Source: an uncultured Holophagae bacterium (lineage in GTDB: Bacteria > Acidobacteriota > Thermoanaerobaculia > Thermoanaerobaculales > Sulfomarinibacteraceae). Taken from it: a DNA stretch of 64,000 nucleotides. The notes under the pieces are model-generated. The model was not told the origin of the DNA. It made no database searches and saw only the letters and a list, made by a program, of their open reading frames with translations. Both the position numbers and the translations under genes were made by a program. Each line of letters starts with the position of its first letter. Position 1 is the stretch's first letter. Positions 5,094 through 55,245 of this stretch are shown here, piece after piece. Location of the stretch: assembly GCA_963714385.1 (NCBI GenBank), contig CAVQOJ010000001.1, positions 299,399 to 363,398 on the forward strand, given 5' to 3'.

Positions 5094-5100
5094 TTGGGGG

Positions 5101-5205
5101 AGTTGAAAGTTGAAAGTTGAAGGTTGAAAGTTCCCGCCCTCCCGCCCGGCTATGAGGCTATGAGGCTATAGAGAATGTCAAATGTGGAATGTGAGATGTT
5201 GAAAC
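5101..5205. repeat. Cluster of short tandem repeats: (TTGAAAG)x4-5, (GGCTATGA)x3, (AATGTGA-like)x4
   Basis: Sequence is agttgaaagttgaaagttgaaggttgaaagtt ... ggctatgaggctatgaggctatag ... aatgtcaaatgtggaatgtgagatgttg. AT-rich units in a GC-rich genome. Confidence 0.85.
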
Positions 5206-5322
5206 CGGCGGCAATTTCGCCTGGAGTCAACATCTGTATTGCCCCGGACGGCCCTGTGCGGTCCTGGTAACGAGCTGGGGAATAGAACGCCGCGAGCGGT
5301 CGCACCACGTTCCCGGTTTCCA

Positions 5323-5390
5323 CATTCCGCATTCCGCATTCCGAATTCTCCTCTGCCCCTCTGCCCCTCCGCCCCTTTTCCCCTCTGCCG
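5323..5390. repeat. (ATTCCGC)x3 heptamer repeat followed by (CCTCTGCC)x5 octamer repeat
   Basis: Sequence is cacattccgcattccgcattccgaattc then cctctgcccctctgcccctccgccccttttcccctctgcc. Confidence 0.85.
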
Positions 5391-5424
5391 TCCAGACAAA
5401 CGGCCGGGCGGTCGGGGAAAATCT

Positions 5425-5467
5425 GCAATTTGCAATTTGCATTTTGCAATGTGCAATTTGCAATCTG
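5425..5467. repeat. (GCAATTT)x6 degenerate heptamer tandem repeat
   Basis: Sequence is gcaatttgcaatttgcattttgcaatgtgcaatttgcaatctg. Confidence 0.85.
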
Positions 5468-5569
5468 CCCCCTTGCCGGCCAGATGCCCAGCACAATAGC
5501 CCACCCACCGCCAACCGGCTTGGTACGCTCGCGCGGGGAATGCGCCACAGTCGGCTGCCGTTGCTCGGC

Positions 5570-6112
5570 ATGGAGGGTGTGTTCATGTGGAGGTCGATCG
5601 CGCTGGCTTGTACGATAGCCGCTGCCGCCGGTGCAGCGTCAGGAGGAGAAATGATCGCAGCTGGTTCCGCTTTTCCCGGATTCTCGTTGACTGCCCACGA
5701 CGGTTCGACCGTCTCGAGCGAGGCCCTCGCCGGCACGCCGTACCTCGTGTACTTCTACCCGAAGGCCGACACCCCGGGCTGCACCAAGGAGGCCTGCGCC
5801 TTTCGAGACAGCTGGGCCGGGGTTCAGATGGCCGGCCTCGCGGTCTTCGGCGTGTCCTACGACACCCCCACGACCAACCGTAAGTTCGCCGAGAAGTACG
5901 GCTTGCAGTTCCTTCTGCTGTCCGACACCGACAAGTCGCTGGCCGACTCCGTCGGGGCCAAGACCACCCTGATTCCGGTGCCAAAGCGGATCTCCTACCT
6001 GGTCGGCGCCGACGGCACGGTGCTTAAGGCCTACCCGAAGGTCGATCCCACCAACCATGCCGCCGAGGTCCTCGACGACCTGCGGGGGTTTGAGGCGAGC
6101 GAACAGCAATAG
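5570..6112 (+). CDS. Peroxiredoxin of the AhpC/TSA family (Bcp/PrxQ-like), probably with a signal peptide
   Basis: FYPKADTPGCTKEACAFRD contains the peroxidatic Cys motif (T-P-G-C). Start is ATG 5570 or 5585. The hydrophobic N-terminus is MWRSIALACTIAAAAG. Confidence 0.8.
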   Translation: MEGVFMWRSIALACTIAAAAGAASGGEMIAAGSAFPGFSLTAHDGSTVSSEALAGTPYLVYFYPKADTPGCTKEACAFRDSWAGVQMAGLAVFGVSYDTPTTNRKFAEKYGLQFLLLSDTDKSLADSVGAKTTLIPVPKRISYLVGADGTVLKAYPKVDPTNHAAEVLDDLRGFEASEQQ

Positions 6113-6162: not shown

Positions 6163-8799
6163 CTACGAAATTTTCTCCACTCCGAACAGGGCGAGAAAGC
6201 GCGGCTCGTCGCGCAACCCGTCGAAAGCCGTCATGACGAGCGGATGATAGGGATCCCAGACATACCCTTCGTAGGTGGCTTGGAGCTCATCCAGGGCTTT
6301 GTCCTCGTCGCCGACCAACGTCAGCGCCGCGGCCAGTGATATCCGGTCGCGCGCGGATTCAACTCCATGTGTCTCGGCGCGCCCGATCCACCGTCGAGCC
6401 TCGTCCACTCGGCCGACCGCCGCGGCCAACCTCGCGAGGACGAGGAGATCTCCCGTCTTCAATGATGCCGCCCCTGCCCCCGAGCGCATACGCTTGGACT
6501 CCTCCAGCACGAGGATTTCGGCCTCGCCGGCATTACCGATGGCAACCAGGGCCATGGCGAGGTCGGCGGCGGCAGTGGCCCTGTCGCTCGGAATCTCGCC
6601 GGCTTCGGCCAACGTGTGAACCCGGCGCAAGATCGGTGCAGCTTCATCCACAGCCCCCAGGGCAAACAAAACGAGGCCCAGGTTCGGCAGGGCGTAGTCG
6701 TGATCAGGCTCGAGCGCCAGGGCCTTTCGCAGCGCCGGAACGGCTTCGGTTAATCGGCCCTGGGCTGCGAGACTCCAACCGAGGCCCGCATTGAAACCGG
6801 GCACGTCGGGCCCTAAAACCAGCGACCTTCGCGCCACCGCCTCGGAGGCTCTCGCTCTGCGCTGGTGAAGAACGTGCAAGAACCACAGGTTTTGCAGCGC
6901 CACGCCGGACCTGGAGTCCAGCTCGGTCGCCCTCTCGAACATTGCCGTCGCCTCATCGTATCGGCCCTGGAACATCAGGATCCGACCGCGGTTGTTGAAG
7001 GCCGGCATGTTATTCGGGTAGAGCTCGCAGATCAGCTCGTACTCCTCCAATGCTCCTTCCAGGTCCTCATCTACGAACTGGCGGTTGACGGCGCGGATCA
7101 TCAGGTACTCCAGCTGCGGCAGCACTTCGCCATCAACCAGCGCCTCCCTCAACCACTGTTTGCCGGTCTCCTTGTCGTCAAGGAACTGGATCAACAAAAG
7201 ACCCAGAGTCCCCTTCGCCGTGGCAAACCTGGGATCGGCCTGGATCGCCATTTCCAACAGCGGCGCAGCTCCTTCGAAATCTCCCGCGTCCCAATTCTGA
7301 TTGGCAAGCGAAAGGTACTTCAGAGCGTCCCACGACGACGTGCTTGCCCGCGCCACCGGCAAATCCGTGTTCTTGATCGACCCCAGCGACTCGCCGAGTC
7401 GCCGTCGCACCTTCCGGGTCAGCTTGTCGATGGCCTTCAGCAGCACGTCTTCCCGACCGCGAGCGGTCACCCGAACCTGATCCACGTGGTGGCCGGTGGC
7501 CGGGTCCACCAACACGGCTTGGAGCTCGTAGGCTTCTCCGGCGGAGAGGATTCTGGGCAGCAGCATTGCCCGGACCTTGCCGAACCTGCAGATGTCCCGA
7601 CCCAATTCCTCGTCGATGGGCGACAGCGGATCCCGGCGCATGAATCGGAGGGTCTCCCTGATCTGGCTCTGCTGCATGACCGCAGCGTAAGGAGACTGCT
7701 GGAGATCCGCCTCGAGCGCGGTCCGCAGGGCCAGGTCGAAGACCTCTTCGCCCGTTTGATTGTCTACCGACGCGATCAACAACCGGTCACGCTGCTCGAA
7801 GGCGATGCTCGGCCGATTCCACGCGATCACCACCGCCGTTGCCGCGACGGCGACGACCAGCGCCCCGGCGGCGGCCGCGAGCACGCGTTTCCGGCGCCGG
7901 GACGCGGCGACGCTCACCGGCACGAACTCCGAGGTTCTCAGCGCCTTGAGGTCCTCCGCCATTTCCAGACAGGTCGCGTATCGACCGTCGGCCTCCTTGG
8001 CGAGCGCCTTTCGGAGCACCTCTTCGACGCCGGGCGGCAACCGGTCCACGGTAGATCCCAGGGGGGGAGGTTCCTCCACCAGCACCCGCCTCAGGGTCTC
8101 CGGAACCGACTTGGATTTGAACGGTGAAATCCCCGACAGCATCTCGTAGAGCACGCACCCGGTCGCGAAAACGTCGGTCCGGGCATCGACCTCCTGGCCG
8201 GCCGCCTGCTCCGGTGACATGTACGCCGGGGTGCCCATGACCATCCCCGCGGCGGTCTGGGTCATGGTCTCGTCGTTCTCGTCCTGAGGGCCGGTGCGCA
8301 CGCTGAGCCTGGCGAGCCCGAAATCCAGGACCTTGACCCTGCCGTCCGGAGTCACCATCAGGTTCCCCGGTTTGATGTCCCGGTGGACGGCGCCCGCCCG
8401 GTGGGCCGCTGCCAGCGCCTCGGCGAGCTGGATTCCGAGGTCGATCACCTCGTCCGGCGGCATGGCGCCGCGGGCAATCCGGGTCTTCAGGGTCTCCCCC
8501 TCGATCAGCTCTGAGGCCAGGTACAGCCAGCCCTCGTCGGTCTCGCCGGCCTCGTAGATGGTGGCGATGCCCGGGTGGTTGATGGCGGCCGCCGCCTGGC
8601 ACTCCCGAATGAAGCGCGACCGCGACCGCGGGTCCTCCGACAGCTTGGGCTGGATCAGCTTGAGGGCCACGTCCCTCTTGAGCAGCGTGTCGCGCGCCCG
8701 ATAGACCACTCCCATGGCCCCGGCGCCGAGCCGGTCGATGATGGTGAAACGCGACACCTGGCCCGCGCCCATCTCGCCGTTCGCAACAGTGCGATCCAT
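6163..8799 (-). CDS. Ser/Thr protein kinase with a transmembrane segment and a C-terminal TPR repeat domain
   Basis: N-terminus LGAGAMGVVYRARD...VALKLI, then HRDIKPGNLMV, DFGLAR and MSPEQ kinase subdomains. A hydrophobic segment VLAAAAGALVVAVAATAVVIAW follows, then many TPR-like repeats. Confidence 0.85.
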   Translation of the reverse strand: MDRTVANGEMGAGQVSRFTIIDRLGAGAMGVVYRARDTLLKRDVALKLIQPKLSEDPRSRSRFIRECQAAAAINHPGIATIYEAGETDEGWLYLASELIEGETLKTRIARGAMPPDEVIDLGIQLAEALAAAHRAGAVHRDIKPGNLMVTPDGRVKVLDFGLARLSVRTGPQDENDETMTQTAAGMVMGTPAYMSPEQAAGQEVDARTDVFATGCVLYEMLSGISPFKSKSVPETLRRVLVEEPPPLGSTVDRLPPGVEEVLRKALAKEADGRYATCLEMAEDLKALRTSEFVPVSVAASRRRKRVLAAAAGALVVAVAATAVVIAWNRPSIAFEQRDRLLIASVDNQTGEEVFDLALRTALEADLQQSPYAAVMQQSQIRETLRFMRRDPLSPIDEELGRDICRFGKVRAMLLPRILSAGEAYELQAVLVDPATGHHVDQVRVTARGREDVLLKAIDKLTRKVRRRLGESLGSIKNTDLPVARASTSSWDALKYLSLANQNWDAGDFEGAAPLLEMAIQADPRFATAKGTLGLLLIQFLDDKETGKQWLREALVDGEVLPQLEYLMIRAVNRQFVDEDLEGALEEYELICELYPNNMPAFNNRGRILMFQGRYDEATAMFERATELDSRSGVALQNLWFLHVLHQRRARASEAVARRSLVLGPDVPGFNAGLGWSLAAQGRLTEAVPALRKALALEPDHDYALPNLGLVLFALGAVDEAAPILRRVHTLAEAGEIPSDRATAAADLAMALVAIGNAGEAEILVLEESKRMRSGAGAASLKTGDLLVLARLAAAVGRVDEARRWIGRAETHGVESARDRISLAAALTLVGDEDKALDELQATYEGYVWDPYHPLVMTAFDGLRDEPRFLALFGVEKIS

Positions 8800-9011: not shown

Positions 9012-10739
9012 ATGACAGCTCGCCAGATTCGTAATGTGGTTTGCTCCCTCTTCATCGCCTCGTTGCCTGCAGTCCAGGCGTCGGCCGTGCGCCAGCCCGA
9101 GCCCACTGGCCTCGAGGTGGGGATCCGCGCCGCGGCTCCGACCCAGGCCCACGATCGGATGCTGGTCAACCTCGAGACCGGGACTCCGGTGGCGCTGTAC
9201 CAGGTGGACTTCGCGGTCCGTCCGGGAGCGCCGGAAGACCAGACCCGGGAGTACCTCCGGGCCGAGGCCGCCACGCTGGGTCTCCTTCACGCCGCCCTCG
9301 GGGACCTGGTCCACCACGCCAGCCGGACCACCCCGGCCGGCTCCACCGTCCGCTTCCGCCAGCACCTGGACGGCGTGCCCGTCTACGGCGCCGAGGTCAC
9401 GGTGACCCTGAACAACCACAACCAGGTGGTCTTTGTCACCAGCACCTACGAGCCGAGGGTCTCCCTCCGCTCCACCGAGCCGACCCTGACCGCCGACCAA
9501 ACCCGGACGATCGCGAACCGGCACCTCGCTGTCGAGGGTCCGAGCCTGCACGACAGTCAAAACCTCATGGTGTACCAGGACGCTGACCGCACCCGGCTCG
9601 TCTACCGCCTCGTGACGACTCCGCAGGTCAGCCCGCGCGGCGAGTGGGAGGTGCTGGTGGACGCCCACGACGGCACCATCGTCCGTGCCGCAGACATCGC
9701 CTACTACGTGGACGGCTCCGGCAGGGCCTTCGACCCCGACCCGCTGTCCTCGGCCCACGCCACCTACGGCCAGACCGGATTCACCGACGGCGGCGACGCC
9801 GACACCCCCCAGCTCACCGCCGAGGCCTTCGTCCGCGACCTGCTGGACATCACTGAGGCCGGCGGCACCTACACCCTGCGCGGACCGTACGCCTACATCC
9901 TCGACTTCGAGGCGCCCTACAAGGGGATATTCAGTCAGACCTCGTCCACCTGGGACTTCACCCGGAACGCCGACGCCTTCGAGGCGGTCATGGGCTACTA
10001 CCACATCGACACCTTCATGCGCTACATCAACGAGACCCTGGCGGTCCCGGTGATGCCGTACCAGTACCCCACCGGCGTCGTCTTCGATCCGAGCGGCCTT
10101 AGCGGCGCCGACAACTCCCACTACACCTCCGCCGGGCGCCTGGCGTTTGGCGAGGGCGGCGTCGACGACGCAGAGGACGCCGATGTGCTGATCCACGAGC
10201 TCGGTCACGGCCTCCACGACTGGCTCACCTCGGGCGGCCTGTCCCAGGTGACCGGCCTCAGTGAGGGCGTGGGCGACTACTGCGCGGTGTCGTACAGCCG
10301 CTCCTTCGGCCACTGGCTGCCGAGCGAGGCCCAGTACACCTGGGTCTTCGACTGGGACGGCCACAACCCGTTCTGGCCCGGCCGAAACGTCAACTGGGTG
10401 GACACCCACCCCTGGCCCACCGGGCTCACCGGTGACCTCTATCAAAACGGCCTGATCTGGGCCGGCTGCATGATGCGGGTGTGGGACGCCGTCGGCCGCG
10501 AGCAATCTGACCGGGCGTTCTTCGTCGGCCTGAGCTACACCAATGCCGGGTCGAACCAGGACGTCGCCGCTCACGCCGTGCTCCAGGCGTCCATGGACCT
10601 CGGCTATCCCATCGAGGACCAGGTGGCCATCGCCACCGCGCTGGCCAGCTGCGGCTACACCGTGGAGATCCCGGGACCGCTGTTCGCCGACGGCTTCGAG
10701 TCGGGAGATACCACCGCATGGTCGGTAACCGTCCCGTAG
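9012..10739 (+). CDS. Secreted zinc metalloprotease (HExxH; M4/M36-like with an N-terminal propeptide) ending in a GFESGD-W tail
   Basis: Signal peptide MTARQIRNVVCSLFIASLPAVQASA. HELGHGLHDW is the zinc-binding motif. The C-terminus is ...LFADGFESGDTTAWSVTVP*. Exact peptidase family is not certain. Confidence 0.8.
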   Translation: MTARQIRNVVCSLFIASLPAVQASAVRQPEPTGLEVGIRAAAPTQAHDRMLVNLETGTPVALYQVDFAVRPGAPEDQTREYLRAEAATLGLLHAALGDLVHHASRTTPAGSTVRFRQHLDGVPVYGAEVTVTLNNHNQVVFVTSTYEPRVSLRSTEPTLTADQTRTIANRHLAVEGPSLHDSQNLMVYQDADRTRLVYRLVTTPQVSPRGEWEVLVDAHDGTIVRAADIAYYVDGSGRAFDPDPLSSAHATYGQTGFTDGGDADTPQLTAEAFVRDLLDITEAGGTYTLRGPYAYILDFEAPYKGIFSQTSSTWDFTRNADAFEAVMGYYHIDTFMRYINETLAVPVMPYQYPTGVVFDPSGLSGADNSHYTSAGRLAFGEGGVDDAEDADVLIHELGHGLHDWLTSGGLSQVTGLSEGVGDYCAVSYSRSFGHWLPSEAQYTWVFDWDGHNPFWPGRNVNWVDTHPWPTGLTGDLYQNGLIWAGCMMRVWDAVGREQSDRAFFVGLSYTNAGSNQDVAAHAVLQASMDLGYPIEDQVAIATALASCGYTVEIPGPLFADGFESGDTTAWSVTVP

Positions 10740-10742
10740 GCA

Positions 10743-10888
10743 AATTGAAGATTGAAGATTGAAGATTGAAAATTTCCCCACCCACCCCTTGGCAAGCTCG
10801 TTGAGGGAGGTTTTCCGAATTCCGAATTCCGAATTCGGATTTCTAAGGCGCTGATAACTAAGAACTAAGAACTCAAAACTCAAAACTC
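10743..10888. repeat. Cluster of heptamer tandem repeats: (AAGATTG)x3-4, (GAATTCC)x4, (ACTAAGA)x2(ACTCAAA)x2
   Basis: Sequence is aattgaagattgaagattgaagattgaaaatt ... ccgaattccgaattccgaattcgg ... actaagaactaagaactcaaaactcaaaactc. It lies between the protease and icmF. Confidence 0.85.
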
Positions 10889-15536: not shown

Positions 15537-16052
15537 TTAGAAAGTCTCGCCGAAACGCTCCGGGGCCGTCATCTCTGCCGCTGTCGCGGCCATGCTCTGG
15601 TCCGGGCGATCGAGCTCCGCCGCGTGCTCCGGGTCGTTGATCCGGCACTTCGCTCCCTCCCCCGCCCACCAGCTCGCCACCTGCAACCGGTTGAACACGA
15701 GGTACGGACCGCCGTCGGTTTCGAACTGAGTGCCGATACTGAGTGCCAGGGCCGACACTTTTGACACTTTTTGGCCCCCGCGGTCGTTCACCGATCTGAA
15801 ACTGTCAGGAATGTCGGCCCCGGCACTGTGCACGTCGGCACTGAGGCGACGGCGTTGTTTGAGCAGCCCGAGGAATTTTTTCGAGAAAACGTCTCGTTTC
15901 GAATGTGGCCACACTGTAGAGTGATGGATTCGATCATGCCCCTCAGTGAAGCCCGCATTGGCGACAGAGTTCAATGCACACATGAATCTGGGGGAAAGCC
16001 GCACCTCGATGCCTGCGCCCGTGGCATCTGGAGCGGCCCTGAGATGATCCAT
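15537..16052 (-). CDS. Hypothetical protein (start uncertain: Met at 16052 or 15983)
   Basis: The C-terminal 65 codons (15540-15740) have GC3 around 85%, typical of this genome's real genes. The N-terminal part runs into lower-GC DNA. No recognisable domain. Confidence 0.35.
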   Translation of the reverse strand: MDHLRAAPDATGAGIEVRLSPRFMCALNSVANAGFTEGHDRIHHSTVWPHSKRDVFSKKFLGLLKQRRRLSADVHSAGADIPDSFRSVNDRGGQKVSKVSALALSIGTQFETDGGPYLVFNRLQVASWWAGEGAKCRINDPEHAAELDRPDQSMAATAAEMTAPERFGETF

Positions 16053-16077
16053 GAGATTCACTAAAGGACTCAGACCA

Positions 16078-19000
16078 ATGAACCTCTTCTGTAAAAAGCC
16101 CCAAGCTGCTCGTGGAAACCGCCAAGCCGCACAACGCCTACAGCGAGTCCTCGGTCTCGTATTTCTTCTGCTGGCAGCTCCGGCCGCAGCGCAGTGGAGC
16201 ACGCAGAGTCCCCTGCCAACCTACCTGGATGTCCGGGGCGTCGCAGCGCCGACGGCCGAGCGAGTCTTTATCGCCACCGACGACAACTCCTTCGATGACG
16301 GAGGTGCTCTTTTCGAGTCGGCCGACGGCGGGGCCAGCTGGGTCCAGCGCGATGTGCCCTTCAGCCTGGGCTCTCCGCTCAACGGGATCTTCTTCCTGGA
16401 CGAACTGAATGGTTGGACCTGGGGCAACGCCAACTACCGTACGACCGACGGTGGGACCACGTGGACCGAGCTGCCTTTCCTGGGCTCGACGTATTTCATG
16501 GAGTTCTACTCGGCCAGTTTCGGCTTGGCCTCGGGCAACTTCGACAGCTACATCAGCCGCGACGGCGGGCTGTCGTGGGACCCCTCACCGAATGACATCT
16601 TCGCGTTTGATTTCGCGGATGACCTGACCGGGCTGGGCGTCTCCGCCACCGGCCTCTACCGCACAAGCGACGGCGGCGCCACGTTGACCCAGGTCCACGC
16701 CGGCGACGCGGACGCGGTGGCCTTCCTCTCGGCGTCTGTCGCAGTGGGCATCGTGGACGGTGCCTTCGTGCGTTCGACTGACGGAGGTGTCACCTGGTCC
16801 GCGGGTGCATCGGCCGACGGTCGAAGTCGTCTCGTTGCGGTCTCGGCCGACGTCGTGCTGGCGTGGGGCCGGGCCGGCGCCTATCCGGACTACGACGACC
16901 GTATCTTCCGGTCCTCTGACGCCGGCCAGACCTGGACTGACCTCGGCGAGGTTATGGATCCGGGCGCTTTCGCCGCGTCCTTCGCCTTTGCCGTGCCGGA
17001 CTCGCAGACCGTGGTCGGTTCCGACGGCGCGGGAAACATGTACCACTCCCCGGACGCGGGCCAGACGTGGGTGCAGGCCTTCGCCTCGCCAGGACTCCAG
17101 CCCAGCTTTCTGGGCAGCGCCGCGCCAGCCTTTGCCGACCCGCTGACGGGCTATTTCGGCTACGGCGCCGGCTTCGTCATCAAGACGGTCGACGGTGGCG
17201 CCAGCTGGACGCAGATCTCGAGCGGCTCCGGGAATTCCATCACCGATATGGATCGCTTCGCCGACGGCAACCTGATCGCGGTCGGGGAGAACGGCACCGT
17301 TCTGACCAGCACGGGCACGACGCCGTGGACTCTTCACGCGCCGTTTACGACATCTCACGTCCGGGCGGTGCAGGTCATCGGTCCGCAGGAAGTCGTGGCC
17401 GTGGACGAGGCCGCCCGCGTGTACAGCAGTGCCGATGGCGGCGCCACGTGGGCGGCTGCGGCGACGACGCCCCCGAATCTCGAGGCGGAGGATCTTTTCT
17501 TCACCACCCTCCTCGACGGATGGGTCACCGGCTTCGGCTTCGGGGGTGCGGCCGTGTTCCACACGACCGATGGCGGCGCCACGTGGACGTCCGTTCCCGG
17601 TTTTTCTGGGGCCTACGTCGCCGTGGATTTCGCAGGCCAGAACGGCTGGGCGGCAAACGTCAGCGGGCGCTACTACCGCAGCATTGACGGCGGCGCGACG
17701 TGGATGCAGGGAGACCTTCCCGGCTCCCCGCTCCAGATCCAGGACATGGATTTCTTCGACGTGAGCATCGGCTACGCGGTCGGCTGGTGGGGGTATGCGG
17801 TTCGCAGCGACGACGGGGGCGCGACCTGGCAGGTTTTGCCCACACCCAACGGAAACGACCAGCTCACCGACATATACCTGCTCGGCCCCAACGAGCTGTG
17901 GGTCAGCACGAACGCCGGAGTGGCCTACTACTCGGCCACGGGCGGCCAGAACTGGGCCGTTCTCGACACCGGGTCGGCGGGCTTCGGCAACTTCTCGGCC
18001 ATCGCCGCCACGCCGGAAGGGGATGCCTGGACAGCCGGTTTTCAGGGCTACATCGAGCACTTCGCGGGGCCGCCCCCGCCGCCGCTGAATCGACCGCCAG
18101 AAGCGTCCTTTGGCTTTGTCACCACGGGACTGTCCGTCGCTCTCACCGACACCAGCACCGATCCCGACGGCACGATCGTCAGCTGGGACTGGGACTTCGG
18201 AGACGGCAACACGTCGACCGAGCAACACCCGACGCACGTGTTCGCGACGGCCAACACGTACCACGTGCGCTTGACCGTGACCGATGACGACGGCGCCACC
18301 GGCGGCGCCCTCCGGTTCATCGCGGTCCAGCCCGGTCCGGGCGGCACCTTCGGCGACTTCACCGAGGTGACCCCGCTCGATCCGCTCTTCGTGACGCCGC
18401 AGAACGAGGATTTCTGGGTGGCCACCACCGCGCCCGCCGACTACGACGGCGACGGCGATCTCGACATCGCAGTCCTCGGGTTCTACGTCATCTACAACAC
18501 GAGCGTGGAAGAGCGCCTCGTCCTGCTCCGAAACGACGGGCCGGCGGATGCCCAAGAGTGGGAATTCGCCTACATCGACGTGCCACTCGGCACGCTGACC
18601 GCGGGGGCGTCGGATCTCGCCTGGGGCGATGTGGATGGCGACGGAGACCAGGATCTCGCGGTCGGTACCGACGGCCAGACGGTGATCTACCGCAACGACG
18701 CCGGCACCCTGGCGGCTACCGACACCGTGCTGCCCACCTACTGGGAGGAGAACGACCAGGCCGACTTCGATCTTCGCTCAATCACCTGGGCGGACTACGA
18801 CAACGACGGTGACATCGATCTCCTGCTGCCCTCCGTCTGGGACGACAGCACGTACACCTACCGCACCGCCTTGATGCGGAACGACGGCGCCAACGGCACC
18901 GGCGGGTGGAACTTCACCGAGGTGACCGCGGAATTCGCGCCGACCGGCCACGCCCAGAGCGCCTGGGCCGACTACGACGACGACCTGGACCTCGACCTGC

Positions 19001-19992
19001 TGCTGGTCCACCTGGCGCCACTGACCGAGGACGGCTTCATCCGTCGCTACCGAAACGACGGGGACGGCGTCTTCGTTGGCGAGGACATCCTCTTCAACCT
19101 CACCGTCGAACACGGCGAGGCGCAGTGGGGAGACTACGACTCGGACGGCGACCTCGACATCCTCGTGGCGGGCCATATCAAGGAGACCGACGGCTCGTAC
19201 AACACGGTCCTCCGCGTCTACCGGAACGACGCCGAGACCTACGTTCCGATCGAGGTGATCACGTGCCCCTCCTGCGAAGGCTGGTGGGATCTGACCGCCG
19301 CAACCTGGGCCGACTACGACTCCGATGGGGACGTCGATATCCTCGTCGCGGGCAACTACAACTCCGGCACGCAGATCGAGGGCCGCGCGAAGGTCTACGA
19401 CAACCAGGACGGCGTGTTCACGGACTCGGGCAACCAGCTGCCTGCGCCGCGGGCGTCCGGTTCGCGAGGAGGCTCGTTCACCTGGCTGGACATCGACGGC
19501 GACGGCGATCTCGACTATTTCATCGCCGGCCAGTACTTCGTGCCGGGTGGAAACGGCCTCGTCGAGGCACAGATGCATGTCTACCGCAACGACGCGGGAG
19601 GTCAGAACCGACCGCCCTCTGCTCCGTCGCTACTGACCGCCCAGGTCGATGAGACCGACGGCTCCGTCCAGCTGTGGTGGGAACCGGCGATCGACGACCT
19701 CACCCCAGCCCACGCGCTGACCTATGACCTCGGCCTTTATCGCGACGGCATCCCGGTATCGAACCCGCAGAGGCTGCCGGAGCCCGGGAGCTTGAGCGGC
19801 GTCAGCCAGTGGACGTTGTCAGGGCTGCCTGACGGCAGCTACACGTGGACGCTGGAGGCGGTGGATAGCGCCTACAACGGCGGGCCTGCAGCCGAGAACA
19901 CCTTCGTAGTGGGCGACCCGATCGTGACCACGGTCTTCACAGATGGATTCGAATCGGGTGATCTGTCGCAGTGGAGCGCGGTCTCGCCGTAG
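16078..19992 (+). CDS. Giant secreted multi-domain protein: BNR/Asp-box beta-propeller repeats + PKD domain + FG-GAP/VCBS repeats + FN3-like domain + GFESGD-W tail
   Basis: Signal peptide VLGLVFLLLAAPAAAQWS. More than 12 S/T-x-D-G-G-x-(T/S)-W repeats. PKD core is WDWDFGDGNTSTEQHPTHVF...TVTDDDG. Seven or more DxDxDGDxD FG-GAP motifs. The C-terminus is ...VFTDGFESGDLSQWSAVSP*. Confidence 0.85.
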   Translation: MNLFCKKPQAARGNRQAAQRLQRVLGLVFLLLAAPAAAQWSTQSPLPTYLDVRGVAAPTAERVFIATDDNSFDDGGALFESADGGASWVQRDVPFSLGSPLNGIFFLDELNGWTWGNANYRTTDGGTTWTELPFLGSTYFMEFYSASFGLASGNFDSYISRDGGLSWDPSPNDIFAFDFADDLTGLGVSATGLYRTSDGGATLTQVHAGDADAVAFLSASVAVGIVDGAFVRSTDGGVTWSAGASADGRSRLVAVSADVVLAWGRAGAYPDYDDRIFRSSDAGQTWTDLGEVMDPGAFAASFAFAVPDSQTVVGSDGAGNMYHSPDAGQTWVQAFASPGLQPSFLGSAAPAFADPLTGYFGYGAGFVIKTVDGGASWTQISSGSGNSITDMDRFADGNLIAVGENGTVLTSTGTTPWTLHAPFTTSHVRAVQVIGPQEVVAVDEAARVYSSADGGATWAAAATTPPNLEAEDLFFTTLLDGWVTGFGFGGAAVFHTTDGGATWTSVPGFSGAYVAVDFAGQNGWAANVSGRYYRSIDGGATWMQGDLPGSPLQIQDMDFFDVSIGYAVGWWGYAVRSDDGGATWQVLPTPNGNDQLTDIYLLGPNELWVSTNAGVAYYSATGGQNWAVLDTGSAGFGNFSAIAATPEGDAWTAGFQGYIEHFAGPPPPPLNRPPEASFGFVTTGLSVALTDTSTDPDGTIVSWDWDFGDGNTSTEQHPTHVFATANTYHVRLTVTDDDGATGGALRFIAVQPGPGGTFGDFTEVTPLDPLFVTPQNEDFWVATTAPADYDGDGDLDIAVLGFYVIYNTSVEERLVLLRNDGPADAQEWEFAYIDVPLGTLTAGASDLAWGDVDGDGDQDLAVGTDGQTVIYRNDAGTLAATDTVLPTYWEENDQADFDLRSITWADYDNDGDIDLLLPSVWDDSTYTYRTALMRNDGANGTGGWNFTEVTAEFAPTGHAQSAWADYDDDLDLDLLLVHLAPLTEDGFIRRYRNDGDGVFVGEDILFNLTVEHGEAQWGDYDSDGDLDILVAGHIKETDGSYNTVLRVYRNDAETYVPIEVITCPSCEGWWDLTAATWADYDSDGDVDILVAGNYNSGTQIEGRAKVYDNQDGVFTDSGNQLPAPRASGSRGGSFTWLDIDGDGDLDYFIAGQYFVPGGNGLVEAQMHVYRNDAGGQNRPPSAPSLLTAQVDETDGSVQLWWEPAIDDLTPAHALTYDLGLYRDGIPVSNPQRLPEPGSLSGVSQWTLSGLPDGSYTWTLEAVDSAYNGGPAAENTFVVGDPIVTTVFTDGFESGDLSQWSAVSP

Positions 19993-23017: not shown

Positions 23018-23184
23018 GTTCTCTCCATTTCCTTTTTTTGCGGTCTTTTCAGGTGCGGAGTGCATTCATTCGAGCACCGTGATCAACGATCCTGTGAGCC
23101 TGTCCACCCCAGTCCGAAGCGGCACGACGTGACCTTGTCATCAACGTCCAGGTCCACACCTCAAAGCGACACAGGCGCGGTTGG

Positions 23185-41488: not shown

Positions 41489-44161
41489 TCACCAGCGCGA
41501 GATGTCCCCAGATTCGAAGCCATCGCCGAAGATGCAGCCCTCGCAGGTCTCCCACGGAACGTGGATGATCATCGCGAGAGACTCCGCCTGGTTCGTACAG
41601 TTGTCCTGCGCCGACACCGTGACGGTGTAGGTCCGACCCTCGAAATTGGTGTCCGCGCGTTCCGCTCGGGCGCAGAGGATGTCGGTTTGGGCGTCGTAGG
41701 TGCAGTCGTTGATCGTGTCTCCATCTCCGTCCTGGCCCGGGTGCTCCGGGCATGGAGCGTCGTCGCACTGGTCGGATTCGCACAGGACGTCGATCGACAG
41801 CGCCGGATCGCAGATATCCGAGATGTCGAGCGAGGCGGCGAAGTCTTCGTAACAGACGTACTCATGATCGGCCACGTCGAAAACGACCTGCTCGGGCACC
41901 ACGTTGATGGTCGGCGGCGTGGTGTCGATCACCCGTACGGACGAGACCGCAAAGTCGCTGTTTCCGCACGCGTCCTGGGCGGAAAAAATGACGTTGGTCT
42001 CGGTCCCGGTGGGACGGCACCCTGACGGGAAGACCGGCGGCAGGTTGAAGCTCAGCTGGGCGTCGGAGCACGCGTCCACGGCTGTCGCCGAGTTCGCCCA
42101 GTTCTGGATGACTGGATCATTGCTTGGCACTCCCCCTGGGCCGTTGCACTCCAGGCCGACAGGATCCGGCACGTCGATGACCGGTGGGTCGAAGTCGGCG
42201 ACCGTGATCAGTTGGTCGCAGGTTGCCAGATTGCCGGCCAAATCCGAAGCGGACCAGACGCGCTCGATGGTGAACAGGATCGTGCTCGGCGGACAGTTGC
42301 CCGGCGTGAGCACATCGTTGAAACCGATTTGGGGTTCGAGGGTGCATTCGTCGGTCGCGGAGGCCTCGCCGGTGCTCGCCGGGTCGGTGGGGTCGAGGCA
42401 ACCGAGGAACTCATCGTCGGGACAGACGATCATCGGCGGGTCGAGATCGCCGCCCATCTCCGGGTCGCGGTCGTAGAAGATATCGGTATCGCCGTTTCCC
42501 GGCAGGGCGACTCCGGCCCAAACGGCGTGCGCCGTGCACTGGCCGTACGCGACACCGTTGTACTCCCCGACCCGCATCGTCATCGGTGAGCCGGGCGCAC
42601 ACCCGTCGCCGGGACAGCAAAAACGGCAGCTCGTGGCCACGGTGGTGTCGAAGACCGCGTCGTTGATCTGAACCTCTACCGACCAGGAGTTCCCGCCATC
42701 GCCGCTCCGGGTCGCATAAAGGTCGAGCTGGCTGGTGTCCGGGAACCAGTTGCGGTTGTCGTAGTAGGTGACGACGATGCTTCCGGAAACGGGATCGATG
42801 GCGGCATTCGGGAGCAGCTGGAGGGTGTCGAAAGGACCGCTGTCGACTCGGCTGGGATTGGTCCAGCTCAGACCATTGTCGTCGGAACGGACGATGTACA
42901 CGTCGGCAAAGTCGTCCACGAAGGGCGAGTCGTCAGGGTCGTCGTTTGCCACGACGTAGACTCGCCCTGCCTGAAACGGATCGGCGACAATCCATGGCTG
43001 GACTGATCCCTGAAGCCAGTAGCTCGCCCCGGGGATGCTGCCGACGAGGTGTTTCACGTTCCAGGTCATGTCGGCTTCCCCGGGTTGAAAGGCAACGCTT
43101 TTCTGCGGATACGATACCCCGCCGTCAGTTGAGCGGAGCACCAAAACCTGGCCCGAGACGCCGTCCGGTACACGCCGCGTACCAGGATCGATGAACCCCG
43201 GTTGGGAGTGGTAGGCGATGTAAACGTCGCCATTCGGGGCGACCGTGTTGTGGGCCGGCCAGGGTTTGCCCTCGCCTGTGGCCGCAGACAGCGGTCCCGG
43301 AACCGCGCCCGGTCCCGACATGGTCCACGTCTGTCCCTGATCGACTGAGTAGGCGCCGTAAACGGTCCAGTCACCACTGCCTGGTGAGTTGCCTGTGAGC
43401 TCGGTCCACACCAGGTAGAGGCGGTCCTGAAACGGGTTGCCCGGGTTGGCGTCGGCGGCGAGCCACAGCTTGTCGTTGGAGTACGTCGGCGCGGGCAGAC
43501 CGATCTGCTGGGTCGCGTTGAACGGTCCGCTGACGAGCGCCCCGGTGGTCGGGTTGTGTCTCGACACGAAGACGTCGTACCAACTGTTTCCGCTCCCGTC
43601 GGTGATGCACCCCAGATAGGCGAAGAAGAGACGCCCCTGGCTGTCATACGCCAGGCTCGGGTCGCCGCAGCCGGTGTAACCGGTCGGGAGTAGCGGCCGG
43701 AGGTCGACAGCTGCGGCGAAGTTGTCGCCGCCATCGGTCGAAACCCGCAAAAACAGGGACTGGGCCATCGCCATTCGGTCCTGGTCACCGCCGTCGACGG
43801 CGATGGTCGGCTCCCACCTGAGGCCAAGCGATGTGTCGGTACCCGGAGAATCAACGGCCGTTGGCAGCAGTGGAATCTCGCCGGCTTCCCACGGTCTATC
43901 GTCGGGCGAGCTCGCCGAGTTCTCATCTGGGGCGATGCCGATCTCGGTGCCCGTGTCGATTCCCCCGCACATGATCGGAGCGCTGGCGGGCCACTCGAGG
44001 CCGTCCCCGATTTCGGGGACGCCGGTCGACAGCGGCGTCAGGAGGATTTCCTCGGGCGGCCAACCGAAATCGCCAGCCGAGGCCAGCGCCGGCGCAAGCA
44101 GCCCGATCAAGGTGACGACCCGCGCGGTACGCCAAAACCCGGATCCAAATTGGTAATCCAT
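41489..44161 (-). CDS. Large secreted protein: BNR/Asp-box (sialidase-like) beta-propeller + C-terminal HYR/Ig-like Cys-containing repeats + truncated GFESGD-W tail
   Basis: Signal peptide ...LIGLLAPALASAG. Asp-boxes are STDGGDNF, SVDQGQTW, STDGGVSY, SDDNGLSW and SGDGGNSW. The C-terminal region has repeated D.C...PP.I blocks. It ends ...CIFGDGFESGDISRW*. Confidence 0.8.
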   Translation of the reverse strand: MDYQFGSGFWRTARVVTLIGLLAPALASAGDFGWPPEEILLTPLSTGVPEIGDGLEWPASAPIMCGGIDTGTEIGIAPDENSASSPDDRPWEAGEIPLLPTAVDSPGTDTSLGLRWEPTIAVDGGDQDRMAMAQSLFLRVSTDGGDNFAAAVDLRPLLPTGYTGCGDPSLAYDSQGRLFFAYLGCITDGSGNSWYDVFVSRHNPTTGALVSGPFNATQQIGLPAPTYSNDKLWLAADANPGNPFQDRLYLVWTELTGNSPGSGDWTVYGAYSVDQGQTWTMSGPGAVPGPLSAATGEGKPWPAHNTVAPNGDVYIAYHSQPGFIDPGTRRVPDGVSGQVLVLRSTDGGVSYPQKSVAFQPGEADMTWNVKHLVGSIPGASYWLQGSVQPWIVADPFQAGRVYVVANDDPDDSPFVDDFADVYIVRSDDNGLSWTNPSRVDSGPFDTLQLLPNAAIDPVSGSIVVTYYDNRNWFPDTSQLDLYATRSGDGGNSWSVEVQINDAVFDTTVATSCRFCCPGDGCAPGSPMTMRVGEYNGVAYGQCTAHAVWAGVALPGNGDTDIFYDRDPEMGGDLDPPMIVCPDDEFLGCLDPTDPASTGEASATDECTLEPQIGFNDVLTPGNCPPSTILFTIERVWSASDLAGNLATCDQLITVADFDPPVIDVPDPVGLECNGPGGVPSNDPVIQNWANSATAVDACSDAQLSFNLPPVFPSGCRPTGTETNVIFSAQDACGNSDFAVSSVRVIDTTPPTINVVPEQVVFDVADHEYVCYEDFAASLDISDICDPALSIDVLCESDQCDDAPCPEHPGQDGDGDTINDCTYDAQTDILCARAERADTNFEGRTYTVTVSAQDNCTNQAESLAMIIHVPWETCEGCIFGDGFESGDISRW

Positions 44162-48686: not shown

Positions 48687-48899
48687 CTCGCCAGGATTCT
48701 CGCCGTTCAGATGGGCGCCAACCATCGCAGCTCTTTCCATGACTGTTCAATCGCTCTCGGATACACTTGACTCGGAGGCGTCGTTTTGGACGACAGGTCC
48801 TCGCCAGTCGGCAGCCGGCGGCCCCGAGCTCGACCCGCCTGTGGCCGGAGCGTTTTGACGGCAATATCGCTGCAGTCATGTACCCAGTACGTCTTGCTG

Positions 48900-50786
48900 A
48901 TGGCGCTGTGTCTCTCCCCGATCGGTTCGGCAGCGTCCTGGAACGATGAAGCGGCGAATAACTACTACGGATTCGTGATCTACACGTGGGATGAGAATCC
49001 GACTTCGTGGGATTACGAGATCTTCCCCCTCGCCAAATCTCTCGGCGCACGGTGGATCCAGGCGGAAGGGCCCCTAGTGCTGAGCGAGTCGGCCCACTGG
49101 GGCAGGCTGGTTCCGGACCCCGCGGCCGACCTGTCCGATCCCGCGTCCTACAACTTCGATCTGCTGGATTGGGTCGGGGCGGCCGACGGCGAAGGCCTCA
49201 ACGTGGTGCTGACGCTCAACACCGGCAACGACCACCTTGGCTGGAGCACCTATTCCCCGTGGGTAGAGTGCCTTTGGGTTCCCCAGAATCTCCTCATCGA
49301 GCTTCCCTGCAACTGCCTTCCCAGAGACTGGGATCAGTGGTACCAGTTCGTCTACCAGGTCGCGAGTCACTTCAACGGCGTGAACGGCCCGGAGGTACGC
49401 GTGTTTCAGACCATCGGCGAGCCGGGCAACGTGGAGGGCCAGTACTTCCAGGGCACGCCGCAACAGATGTACGGCGGGGGCGAATCGGTTTTGGTCACCA
49501 GGTATGACGGGTCCACGATCATGCTGCCCGCCGCGGTGGTTCCGATAACCCAACTGGCGGTTCACGACGCCAACCCCCTCGCCCGCCTCGCCCTGGGCGC
49601 CCCCTATGGAGGCGTGGAGGGAACTGCCCTGGCGGCAGTGCACGACCTGTACCAGGAGTACAGCGACGGTGGCTTCACCGTGGAGGAGAAACAGGAAATC
49701 GTAGACCTCGCGAACCACTACAACCTCCACCTCATCCAGGTCCTGTGGTGGTTCAGGGAGATCACCTTCGAGGACATCGAGGGGTGGCTGTTCAACGACA
49801 GCAACAACCCGGCCAGGCGCGGCCGGGAGTTCATCGAAGCCTCCATCGAACAGCCGCAGTACTACGACATTTACGGCTTCCACCTCTACGACAGCGAGCA
49901 TCGAAGGTACGGTTGGCTCGGCTCGGCGGGGATCAGCCGGGCGATGGCCTACATTGGGGATCAGCTCCGCGACGTCAAGCCCGCCTGGGTCAACGGCACC
50001 GGCTTGTGGGGCAACCTGTATACGGCGGAGCAGGAGGCCCGCAGCGCCTACCACCTCATCCAGACCCTGGTGGGGAGCTATGCCGCCGGCATGGTCGGAC
50101 TCACCTACACCGGAATCTCCGATGCCATCCTTCTCCCGACCCCGGTCTCCCTCGTCGAGAACCGCCTCGACCCGGACCCCCCACGGGCGCGCCACGAGGC
50201 CGCGGGGGCGTATTCGATGCTCGCGAGGATCTTCCCCGACCCGCAGTCATTCGAGCTCGAGGGGGAGATCATCCCGGACCCGCCGAACGCCGATGTGGTG
50301 TTGTACAGGTTCCACCTGAACCGGCAGGATCTCCCGGCCCAGGGATACGCGGCCGTCGGCTGGTGCATCGACGAGGTGCCCGATCCCTACAACGCCCTCT
50401 CCTTCGACAATCCGGACTGCCCGAAGGAGATCGATGTCGGCCCGCTCCTGGGCCTGCCGCCGGGGACCGAGCTCGCGGTCTACCTCTACACCGGCGAGCT
50501 CGCGACCGGCGGGTGCACCCAGGACCCTGTCATCACCTTCGATGAGGCGCCCTTCCTGATCACCTGGGGGGACGACACCGACGGCGACTGCATCCCGGAT
50601 GTGAGCGACAACTGTCCCGACGTGGAAAACGCGGACCAGAGCGACACGGGCGACATGGTCATGGTAGACGGCGAGTGGCTGGACGCGCCGGACGGCCGGG
50701 GAGACGCCTGCCGGCTTGATGGCACCATCTTCACCGACGGCTTCGAGTCGGGCGACACTGCCGCCTGGTCCAGCGTCGTGCCGTAG
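48900..50786 (+). CDS. Secreted glycoside-hydrolase-like protein (TIM-barrel-like) with thrombospondin type-3 Ca-binding repeats and a GFESGD-W tail
   Basis: Start is uncertain (ATG 48900, with a weak signal peptide). The C-terminal region DDTDGDCIPDVSDNCPDVENADQSD is a TSP3-type D-x-D-x-DG-x-x-D-x-x-DNCP motif. It ends ...IFTDGFESGDTAAWSSVVP*. The GH family is not assignable from sequence alone. Confidence 0.6.
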   Translation: MALCLSPIGSAASWNDEAANNYYGFVIYTWDENPTSWDYEIFPLAKSLGARWIQAEGPLVLSESAHWGRLVPDPAADLSDPASYNFDLLDWVGAADGEGLNVVLTLNTGNDHLGWSTYSPWVECLWVPQNLLIELPCNCLPRDWDQWYQFVYQVASHFNGVNGPEVRVFQTIGEPGNVEGQYFQGTPQQMYGGGESVLVTRYDGSTIMLPAAVVPITQLAVHDANPLARLALGAPYGGVEGTALAAVHDLYQEYSDGGFTVEEKQEIVDLANHYNLHLIQVLWWFREITFEDIEGWLFNDSNNPARRGREFIEASIEQPQYYDIYGFHLYDSEHRRYGWLGSAGISRAMAYIGDQLRDVKPAWVNGTGLWGNLYTAEQEARSAYHLIQTLVGSYAAGMVGLTYTGISDAILLPTPVSLVENRLDPDPPRARHEAAGAYSMLARIFPDPQSFELEGEIIPDPPNADVVLYRFHLNRQDLPAQGYAAVGWCIDEVPDPYNALSFDNPDCPKEIDVGPLLGLPPGTELAVYLYTGELATGGCTQDPVITFDEAPFLITWGDDTDGDCIPDVSDNCPDVENADQSDTGDMVMVDGEWLDAPDGRGDACRLDGTIFTDGFESGDTAAWSSVVP

Positions 50787-53638: not shown

Positions 53639-55132
53639 ATGGTGAGGCCCTGTGACGTGATATTTCGTCGAAGCGATCTGATCTGCCTTCTCCTCAGCGC
53701 CGTGTGTGGAGCCGCTCCAACCACTGGAGTTGCGGCGGACTTTCAGGTGGGCCCGGGGCCGGGCATGTTGGCGAACATCGGCGACGTCCCGTGGGAGAGC
53801 CTCGCACCGGGGGACCGGGTGCTGATTCACTGGCGCGCCGAGCCGTACCGGGAGAAGTGGGTGATCTGCCGCCGGGGGACCGCCGCGGAACCGATCGTCG
53901 TTTCGGGCGTCCCCGGTCCCGGCGGCGAGCTGCCGGTGATCGACGGCCGCGACGCCACCACCCGGCCGGCCCTGAGCTACTGGAACGAGGTGCGGGGCGT
54001 GGTCAAGATCGGCGGCGCCAGCGTGCCGCCCGACACCCTGCCCGCCCACATCGTGATCGAAAACCTCGACATCCGTTCGGGGCGTCCGCCATTTTCCTTC
54101 ACCAATGACTCCGGCGGCGTCGAGTCTTACGCTTCCAACGCGGCCTCGATCTACGTCGAAAAGGCCGAGCAGCTGACGATCCGCAACTGCGCGCTGCACG
54201 ACTCCGGCAACGGCCTGTTCATCGGTGCCTTCGACGGCGCCACCCAGGACATCCTCATCGAGGGCAACCACATCTTCGACAACGGCATCGAGAACAGCTA
54301 CTACGAGCACAACACCTACACCGCGGCCATCCACATCACCTACCAGTTCAACCGCATGGGCCGGCTCAGGCAGGACTGCGGCGGCAACAACCTGAAGGAC
54401 CGGTCGGCCGGGCTGGTGGTGCGTTACAACTGGATCGAGGACGGCAACCGCCAGCTCGACCTGGTGGACGCCGAGGACAGCGCCGTGCTGGTCAACCACC
54501 CCGACTACCGGAGGACCTTCGTCTACGGCAACGTGCTCGTCGAGGCCGACGGTGAGGGCAACAGCCAGATCATCCACTACGGCGGCGACTCCGGGACCCT
54601 GTCGGACTACCGCAAGGGCACCCTCCACTTCTTCCACAACACCGTGGTCTCCACCCGCTCCGGCAACACGACTCTGATGCGGCTGTCGACCAACGACGAG
54701 CACGCGGACGTACGGGACAACGTGGTCTTCACCACGGCCTCCGGCTCCCACCTCGCCCTGCTCAACACCTCCGGGGTCATGGACCTGCTCGACAACTGGT
54801 TGCCCTCAGGCTGGGTCACGAGCCACAGCAGCTTTGACGGCACCCTCATCGACCACGGAACCAACAGCGAGGGGACCGACCCCGGCTTCACCGACCCGGC
54901 GAATCAAGACTTCTCACCCGCCCCGGGGAGCTCCCTGATCGACGCCGGCGGTCCGCTTCACCCGGAAACGGTTCCCGACCATCTTCCCCGGTGGCAGTAC
55001 GTCCCTCACCAGCGCGGTTCCCTCCGTCCCGAGGACGGTGCGCGGGACCTCGGCGCCTTCGAGTTCGGGTTGCTGTTCGCCGATGATTTCGAGTCGGGCG
55101 ACACTACGGCGTGGTCGGCCACAGTCCCGTAG
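53639..55132 (+). CDS. Secreted right-handed parallel beta-helix (pectate-lyase-like) repeat protein with a GFESGD-W tail
   Basis: Repeated NxxIxNCxxHDSGNGLFIG / IEGNHIFDNG / VRYNWIEDGN units match the Beta_helix pattern. The C-terminus is ...LLFADDFESGDTTAWSATVP*. Confidence 0.7.
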   Translation: MVRPCDVIFRRSDLICLLLSAVCGAAPTTGVAADFQVGPGPGMLANIGDVPWESLAPGDRVLIHWRAEPYREKWVICRRGTAAEPIVVSGVPGPGGELPVIDGRDATTRPALSYWNEVRGVVKIGGASVPPDTLPAHIVIENLDIRSGRPPFSFTNDSGGVESYASNAASIYVEKAEQLTIRNCALHDSGNGLFIGAFDGATQDILIEGNHIFDNGIENSYYEHNTYTAAIHITYQFNRMGRLRQDCGGNNLKDRSAGLVVRYNWIEDGNRQLDLVDAEDSAVLVNHPDYRRTFVYGNVLVEADGEGNSQIIHYGGDSGTLSDYRKGTLHFFHNTVVSTRSGNTTLMRLSTNDEHADVRDNVVFTTASGSHLALLNTSGVMDLLDNWLPSGWVTSHSSFDGTLIDHGTNSEGTDPGFTDPANQDFSPAPGSSLIDAGGPLHPETVPDHLPRWQYVPHQRGSLRPEDGARDLGAFEFGLLFADDFESGDTTAWSATVP

Positions 55133-55200: not shown

Positions 55201-55245
55201 GTTGTCGCAGCCGATGGATGCTCCAACACGACTCTCGGCAGGCGA

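Follow-up and report, generated by a model that had tools for sequence, protein, structure and literature searches.

The 64,000-nucleotide stretch analysed here, which is called the window below (contig CAVQOJ010000001.1, positions 299,399 to 363,398, of an uncultured Holophagae bacterium of the Acidobacteriota), contains five genes, A to E, for secreted proteins that end in nearly the same short peptide, named here the FESGD tail. A six-frame scan of the window with the pattern [DE][DGEN]F[ED].G gave exactly five matches, each located 11–16 codons 5′ of a stop codon. All of them lie inside long open reading frames (ORFs) with high GC content at third codon positions, with the stops at 10739 (+), 19992 (+), 41489 (-), 50786 (+) and 55132 (+), and the tail pattern is [LIV]-F-x-D-G-F-E-S-G-D-x3-W(-S-x-x-V-P)-stop. 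The carrier genes and their tails are as follows.

9012..10739, plus strand: carrier A, secreted metallopeptidase of 575 aa with an FTP propeptide and weak M36-family matches
10680..10739, plus strand: FESGD tail of A, LFADGFESGDTTAWSVTVP and stop; the protein ends …PLFADGFESGDTTAWSVTVP
16051..19992, plus strand: carrier B, BNR/Sortilin-like, PKD and FG-GAP protein; start uncertain, 16051 or 16078
19933..19992, plus strand: FESGD tail of B, VFTDGFESGDLSQWSAVSP and stop; the protein ends …TVFTDGFESGDLSQWSAVSP
41489..44161, minus strand: carrier C, BNR-repeat protein of 890 aa with Ig-like C-terminal repeats
41489..41533, minus strand: shortened FESGD tail of C, IFGDGFESGDISRW and stop; the protein ends …CIFGDGFESGDISRW
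48786..50786, plus strand: carrier D, secreted protein without a Pfam match; start uncertain, 48786–48900
50727..50786, plus strand: FESGD tail of D, IFTDGFESGDTAAWSSVVP and stop; the protein ends …TIFTDGFESGDTAAWSSVVP
53639..55132, plus strand: carrier E, right-handed beta-helix protein; a choice-of-anchor Q match below the threshold immediately precedes the tail
55073..55132, plus strand: FESGD tail of E, LFADDFESGDTTAWSATVP and stop; the protein ends …LLFADDFESGDTTAWSATVP

The first-pass annotation of this DNA, made from the sequence alone, had reported near-identical C-terminal tails on five proteins and judged their number far above chance. The scan returned the same five sequences, and the DNA pattern TTYGARWSNGGNGAY-N9-TGG had five matches in the window against 0.00 expected (100 dinucleotide shuffles). 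A small correction concerns protein C: its tail is present in a shortened form that stops at the Trp (…GDISRW), like early-stop variants in other genomes. The five DNA copies differ from one another at synonymous sites, which points to conservation at the protein level and selection on the peptide, and not to a DNA repeat. Nothing related was found in any frame downstream of the five stops.

By eye, all five carriers have a Sec signal peptide-like N-terminus, as had been annotated. They had also been described as unrelated, and their domains do differ, but B and C share BNR repeats and are thus not wholly unrelated. Proteins A and E are 100% identical to the public proteins P0249 and P0376, respectively, and some homologues of E bear the source name 'polysaccharide-degrading enzyme'.

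AlphaFold2 models of A and E were obtained from alignments of 65 and 94 sequences, respectively. In the model of A (mean predicted local distance difference test score, pLDDT, of 78) residues 556–575 had pLDDT 46–62 and no secondary structure, and in the model of E (mean pLDDT 86.6, predicted template modelling score 0.86) residues 479–497 were below 50 and the beta-helix body above 90. In both models the tail is predicted to be an exposed, flexible appendage, which is not packed against the carrier and is no integral strand of it.

Pfam and NCBIfam searches with the whole proteins and with the isolated tails gave no model of the tail, even at E ≤ 10; the same libraries did detect the 24-residue PEP-CTERM and the 34-residue MYXO-CTERM in other proteins. 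Full-text literature searches gave nothing relevant on the FESGD tail, on a VELQSF/PVELQ tail (see below) or on Acidobacteriota sorting signals. The tail is undescribed by these measures, as the annotation had supposed.

Distribution and cargo of the FESGD tail

Species-representative genomes were scanned with GAYGGNTTYGARWSNGGNGAY-N9-TGGWS, which leaves the sequence after the motif unconstrained. At least 117 loci were found, and the matches listed comprised 126 occurrences of the motif; among the matches listed, 95 of 117 loci bear Acidobacteriota titles (Thermoanaerobaculia, including Multivoradales, Holophagae and unclassified Acidobacteriota). A stop codon follows exactly 16 codons past the Asp in 70 of the 126 listed matches and 12–19 codons past it in 99; of the remaining ones, six stop 27–53 codons past the motif, 16 run on for 163–844 residues and five leave the locus. 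At positions left free by the pattern, the 70 canonical tails show [LIV] at -3, F at -2 (67 of 70) and T-S-A between the Asp and the Trp, and they end in x-[TV]-V-P with a terminal Pro in 62 of 70. No conservation was seen upstream of position -3. The consensus module has about 19 residues, [LIV]-F-x-D-G-F-E-S-G-D-T-S-A-W-S-x-[TV]-V-P-COOH.

Proteins were searched in two ways. A word-indexed profile search of 5.8 billion proteins, for which the query was an artificial tandem of real tails and the match list is biased to short fragments, gave 518 matches; nearly all of the 30 sequences retrieved end in lFaDGFESGDTSAWSaTVP, and those with names come from metagenome-assembled genomes (MAGs) of Acidobacteriota/Thermoanaerobaculia. 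An exhaustive hidden Markov model (HMM) search of 1.84 billion cluster representatives, a check that the annotation had itself proposed, found 7,500 proteins at E ≤ 1e-3, a count which takes in internal domain-start matches too. Single-stretch HMM matches that reach the last profile column lie at the C-terminus or within about 15 residues of it. The annotation had spoken of a genome-wide tag, and the genome scan and the HMM search establish its occurrence across the lineage. The flanking DNA of 88 loci (665 kb) contained 19 additional tails, as compared with five in the 64 kb of the window; by a rough extrapolation, biased by clustering, a genome of 4–5 Mb would hold dozens to about 100 carriers.

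The cargo is diverse. The 68 complete carriers from other genomes matched 66 Pfam families, among them S8 subtilases, M36, C25, M28, InhA-like MAM, FG-GAP, BNR, beta-helix, glucose/sorbosone dehydrogenase (GSDH) and cytochrome c7, in agreement with a tail that is borne by many unrelated secreted families and not by one family of paralogs. A crude signal-peptide test was passed by at least 53 of 77 carriers, and in several of those that failed it a signal peptide is plain on inspection. NCBIfam places many carriers in the rhombosortase-, myxosortase- and T9SS-dependent M36 families (T9SS, type IX secretion system) and in the choice-of-anchor B, J and Q families, all of which were named by curators for their variable anchors. 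The tail is shown by these data to be a conserved, strictly C-terminal module on diverse secreted cargo, restricted to one lineage (mainly Thermoanaerobaculia and Holophagae).

Most carriers have a single copy of the tail, and two bare units 20–25 residues apart were found in 15 of 128 representative matches. The tail unit behaves as a self-contained, independent and repeatable module. On a 1.57-Mb contig of JGI metagenome 3300032132 (L118, positions 10001–10126) an ORF of 41 codons consists of a signal peptide-like segment and a bare tail, MTGCRATIAACLLLFAGVDAG-NIFGDGFESGDTTAWSSTVP, and is flanked by genes for an ABC-F ATPase and a DUF1287 protein. This ORF may encode a tag that is exported on its own, or it may be what is left of a gene.

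Modules at the same junction in orthologues

The 120 best homologues of peptidase A (49–100% identity) were compared beyond the catalytic domain, which ends in …CGYxV in all of them and after which the ends diverge. About 60 have the FESGD tail and seven end in VPVELQxFxVE-stop. About 30 have a P-domain and an Ig-like domain ending in GIYFYRL…RRMLLVR-stop, and these ends match TIGR04183 (T9SS type A; 28.1, 26.9 and 25.3 bits versus a cutoff of 23). The others have a Cys-rich module (about 17), FN3 followed by YLPLVLxx-stop (four) or SLH repeats (one). Close homologues of E nearly all retain the tail, sometimes in a degenerate form (F-x-DGFE-x-G-x4-W-S-x3-P-stop); homologues of E at 63–67% identity end instead in Cys, a transmembrane segment and Arg, and these ends match TIGR03901 (MYXO-CTERM; 27.8 and 21.0 bits versus a cutoff of 20).

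The tail is shown by this comparison to fill exactly the slot that known surface sorting and anchoring modules occupy in orthologues. Since these are curated sorting domains at the same junction, they give independent support to the reading of the tail as a sorting tag, which had been proposed in the first-pass annotation. The position thus speaks for that reading, and a sorting function is what we infer from it. Within the orthologue sets the tail is about as conserved as the enzyme body, the mean column conservation of tail versus body being 0.68 versus 0.69 for A and 0.66 versus 0.79 for E. The exchanges are not all of one kind: replacement by a T9SS C-terminal domain (CTD) or by MYXO-CTERM would fit an export signal or an anchor alike, and the tandem copies and the replacement by SLH would favour a binding tag that is retained.

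The same data bear on a regulatory role, in which the C-terminus would be the ligand of a PDZ protease or chaperone in the periplasm (Prc/Ctp/DegS-like) or a removable pro-peptide, and would control activation or turnover instead of localisation. A strictly C-terminal position with a conserved terminal residue would suit such a ligand, and many carriers are proteases with propeptides. However, many others are no enzymes (FG-GAP, BNR, cytochromes), variants that have lost the final residues are tolerated, PDZ ligands do not typically end in Pro, and the exchanges at the junction are with sorting domains and not with regulatory modules; we regard this role as quite improbable.

The seven orthologues of A ending in VPVELQxFxVE carry, in place of the FESGD tail, a second recurrent C-terminal tail, (I/V)PVEL(Q/M/L)S(F/I)x(I/V)E-stop, which ends four further proteins of the window:

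22229-22261, minus strand: PVEL tail, 3′ end of ORF 22229-23065
55720-55752, minus strand: PVEL tail, 3′ end of ORF 55720-58686
59015-59047, minus strand: PVEL tail, 3′ end of ORF 59015-59614
62301-62333, minus strand: PVEL tail, 3′ end of ORF 62301-63992

Three of these four proteins are of the DUF4394/DUF6923/DUF7507 type with a BACON-like last domain, and the PVEL tail also ends ORFs in two Holophagae loci (L030 and L071). No Pfam, NCBIfam or full-text literature match was found for it, and, like the FESGD tail, it is without a transmembrane helix. The two tails are likely sister tags that belong to one system. A further short hydrophobic tail, YLP(L/V/F)(V/I)L(x)x-stop, follows FN3 in the A orthologues P0348, P0350, P0357, P0360 and P0368, of which the named ones come from Chloroflexi and Promineifilaceae MAGs; it may be another undescribed short C-terminal tag.

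Link to ConA-like jelly-roll domains

In the 16 genome matches with a long continuation, and in 23 of 29 matches from viral contigs, F-x-DGFE[ST]GD-x3-W[ST] starts a domain of about 185–300 residues. These full domains close with a strand of the YFDDVxV type and gave sub-threshold Pfam matches to concanavalin A (ConA)-like families: PF14099 (Polysacc_lyase, from profile position 1), PF13385 (Laminin_G_3), PF02018 (CBM_4_9) and 3-keto-disaccharide hydrolase. A sequence search of solved structures with the full domain gave no significant match. The matches come from Chloroflexota, Actinomycetota, Fimbriimonas (Armatimonadota), Bathyarchaeota, bacteria of the candidate phyla radiation, Vicinamibacteria, Acanthopleuribacter pedis and one Thermoanaerobaculia MAG (L037). 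Among the viral contigs (L119–L147, from IMG/VR), the 23 matches given above, in which the motif DGFESGDFSAWTG opens ConA-like domains, are mostly on contigs of low to mid GC content; the bare tail was seen on six viral contigs of high GC content.

On the strength of these sub-threshold matches, the motif is assigned to strand beta-1 of a predicted ConA-like jelly roll, and the bare tail would be that strand alone followed by T-V-P. Large secreted proteins carry about half of the full domains as their own C-terminal module, which suggests that the tail may have arisen by reduction of a C-terminal ConA-like module. Some proteins, such as P0126, have a full domain and a terminal bare tail together. 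If this origin is correct, a strand with a structural role in a lectin-like domain can be put to new use as a signal that stands by itself.

The window tails agree with the N-terminal strand pattern of the domain, F-x-DGFE-x-GD-x3-W. A complete beta-sandwich of about 180–300 residues with a YFDDVxV-type strand was not found at any of them, and no domain-like ORF is located downstream of them or elsewhere in the window. The annotation had named, as a finding that would speak against a tag, a motif that proves to be the edge of a known domain. This is so in part, since the motif starts ConA-like domains in other organisms; the proteins of the window, however, truly end there, as do about 80% of the matches elsewhere.

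A related concern is that the tails are relics of truncated or frameshifted ConA-like domains, or assembly errors. One such case was found: in L077 (Polyangiaceae MAG CAXMQZ010000031.1, minus strand, about 4848–5800) a ConA-like domain continues in another frame after the end of the tail ORF, so that this locus is a frameshifted or pseudogenised full domain which mimics a bare tail, the sole example in about 100 bare tails. The six listed matches that stop 27–53 codons past the motif could be read in the same way. Against this stand the identical stop distance in 70 of the 126 listed matches and the conservation of T-V-P, which was left free by the search pattern; downstream of the five stops in the window there is nothing that resembles a domain, stop-codon usage is normal, and the tail is kept across orthologues at 50–100% identity and is as conserved as the catalytic domains. 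The relic or artefact explanation is largely refuted by these data, and we give it hardly any weight. Stop-codon read-through was likewise rejected, as stop-codon usage matches the background.

The likeness to a first strand also allows a docking mechanism in trans, in which the tail would be a detached beta-1 that inserts into a surface-anchored ConA-like acceptor lacking its own beta-1. Such docking would be non-covalent (or Ca2+-dependent), like cohesin–dockerin or donor-strand attachment, and could hold many enzymes on one scaffold. In other phyla, archaea and phages, full ConA-like domains have the identical motif as their first strand, and it aligns from position 1 of PF14099; the frequent C-terminal position of the full domains, the freedom of the tail in the AlphaFold2 models and the possible gain in avidity from tandem bare units would also agree with docking. 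On the other side, no acceptor without beta-1 was found by phmmer in the window and about 0.9 Mb of loci, a small search of limited sensitivity; the full domains lack the conserved TVP end; and, chaperoned pilins aside, we know of no precedent for a stable jelly roll without an internal strand. Strand complementation of this kind is unlikely in our estimate.

Direct binding to the cell surface would need no protein receptor at all. With its aromatic and acidic residues (F, F, W, D, E, D), the tail might form a hairpin that binds the bacterium's own lipopolysaccharide, exopolysaccharide or a cation-bridged matrix and so keeps the enzymes cell-associated. The probable derivation from a lectin-like or carbohydrate-binding-module-like fold, the conserved aromatic and acidic residues, the tandem repeats, as in other wall-binding repeats, and the SLH domain at the same position in an orthologue are consistent with such a mini anchor. 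A single peptide of 19 residues is unlikely to bind glycan usefully, though, and most carriers have one copy; moreover, nine near-invariant positions across thousands of proteins suggest a specific protein partner. We consider a receptor-free anchor rather unlikely.

Interpretation and comparison with known systems

Taken together, we think it fairly likely that the FESGD tail serves as a localisation tag: a single shared partner, in the periplasm or at the outer membrane, would read it and so deliver the cargo to the surface or retain it there. In the proposed sequence of events, enzymes and adhesin-like proteins of Acidobacteriota that bear the tail are exported by Sec. Once they are in the periplasm, one common putative receptor or translocon would recognise the flexible tail, probably as a beta-strand or hairpin, in keeping with its derivation from beta-1 of a ConA-like domain. 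The putative receptor would then take the cargo to the cell surface or hold it there.

Several points weigh against a sorting tag. The short C-terminal sorting signals that are well characterised all possess a transmembrane helix and a basic cluster (10.1101/2023.06.07.544157), and the tail has neither. The sole precedent without a transmembrane segment, the T9SS CTD, is a folded domain, which was matched here over about 70–80 residues. Sorting signals that are cleaved do not typically come in tandem copies, which would better suit a binding module. The motif is also an ordinary strand of a lectin-like domain, and the origin of the tail could therefore be structural or binding instead of targeting. 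Finally, no candidate partner was found in the window, and none recurs beside the tail genes in the 117 loci (all-versus-all BLAST).

The search for a partner covered the gene neighbourhoods. No sorting peptidase was recognisable in the window or in the 117 flanking regions, and the annotation was right that the window encodes no obvious cognate enzyme: the neighbours (penicillin amidase, M1 peptidase, TPR, SGNH, acyltransferase-3, metallo-beta-lactamase and unknown proteins) were examined and none was retained as a candidate. Gene D lies downstream of the TPR, SGNH/GDSL and acyltransferase-3 genes. The BLAST comparison of the 117 loci gave as recurrent neighbours only Ser/Thr kinases, extracytoplasmic function (ECF) sigma factors, two-component regulators and sulfatases, and these were rejected as partners, their recurrence being about that of abundant paralogues by a rough estimate. 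No T9SS machinery (SprA/PorV/PorU and others) was seen in the window, which is only 64 kb of the genome, and no PEP-CTERM or T9SS CTDs were found in the Acidobacteriota loci, a small sample searched with crude regular expressions.

Two other features of the neighbourhood were recorded. A large Ser/Thr kinase with an ATPase and TPR-like C-terminal region (6163-8799, minus strand) is the divergent neighbour of gene A. Members of this kinase family lie within 8 kb of tail genes in 16 of the 117 loci (including L021, L025, L052, L059, L062, L073, L093 and L115), paired with an ECF-type sigma factor in ten loci, a frequency roughly as expected for abundant paralogues. AT-rich heptamer tandem arrays of 3–9 copies (units AGTTGAA, ATTGAAG, TTCCGAA, CAATTCG, AATTTGC and GACTTTT) occupy intergenic gaps at 975-1013, 5101-5132, 5318-5468, 10744-10836 and 55136-55284, within surrounding sequence of 65% GC. 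Two of the arrays lie directly 3′ of tail genes A and E, and the heptamer AGTTGAA is present at two distant sites of the window.

Acidobacteriota are among the most abundant bacteria of soil and sediment and have very large sets of secreted hydrolases; to our knowledge, how these hydrolases cross the outer membrane or stay on it is essentially not known. A tail that stands where orthologues have T9SS, myxosortase and SLH signals points to a system for sorting or display that has gone unrecognised in this phylum. The tail would provide a one-line rule for predicting the surface proteome and exoproteome of uncultured Thermoanaerobaculia and Holophagae, a concrete peptide bait for finding the machinery and possibly a compact tag for surface display. 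A bolder proposal, which we hold to be doubtful, is that the FESGD and PVELxSFxVE tails are cargo tags of one undescribed outer-membrane secretion or display pathway of Acidobacteriota and, at the furthest, that the FESGD tail is a naturally split beta-1 which completes a beta-1-less ConA-like surface acceptor in trans. If true, split-strand docking would amount to a novel way in which a single scaffold could display dozens of enzymes.

Among known systems, the LPXTG, PEP-CTERM, GlyGly-CTERM and MYXO-CTERM signals are cleaved by sortase, exosortase, rhombosortase or myxosortase. Tripartite sorting signals consist of a motif, a transmembrane segment and an Arg/Lys cluster (10.1101/2023.06.07.544157). 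The FESGD tail resembles them in that a signature motif stands at the very C-terminus of many exported proteins which are unrelated but come from one lineage, and orthologues of E carry MYXO-CTERM in its place. It differs in that only 0–9 mostly polar residues follow the Trp, with no transmembrane segment, and in that its S-x-T-V-P end has no Lys/Arg cluster, as the annotation had noted; it matches none of the curated HMMs (PF07589, TIGR03901 and others). Without the transmembrane segment and the basic cluster, the tail has nothing to keep it in the inner membrane, where it would have to stay for a sorting enzyme that is intramembrane or membrane-bound.

The T9SS CTD (TIGR04183, type A; TIGR04131, type B) is likewise C-terminal on Sec-exported hydrolases and adhesins, has no transmembrane helix and occurs on dozens of cargo proteins per genome, and the type A domain stands on A orthologues at the exact junction of the tail of A. 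It is folded, however, and has its own HMMs, neither of which matches the tail, a peptide of 19 residues that is unstructured in the AlphaFold2 models. The size, the lack of a fold and the absence of a TIGR04183/TIGR04131 match rule out that the tail is a T9SS CTD. A type I secretion signal was also ruled out: type I substrates leave the cytoplasm directly and have no signal peptide at the N-terminus, and Sec-type N-termini were seen, by inspection and a crude heuristic, in all five carriers of the window and in most of those elsewhere.

The ConA-like domains (PF14099, PF13385, PF02018) share with the tail the opening F-x-DGFE[ST]GD-x3-W[ST] of full domains of 185–300 residues in other phyla and viral contigs, whereas the tail proteins end about five residues past the Trp with the conserved T-V-P and lack the YFDDVxV strand. 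Dockerin repeats, pilin donor strands and the N22 segment of curli CsgA are peptides of about 20 residues that work only through a partner protein; none has sequence or profile similarity to the tail. CsgA N22 and pilin donor strands are N-terminal, unlike the FESGD tail, and dockerins resemble it in the tandem duplication of their unit. C-terminal sorting tags are thus known as a kind, and what is new here is an architecture without a transmembrane segment and a probable origin from a strand of a lectin-like domain.

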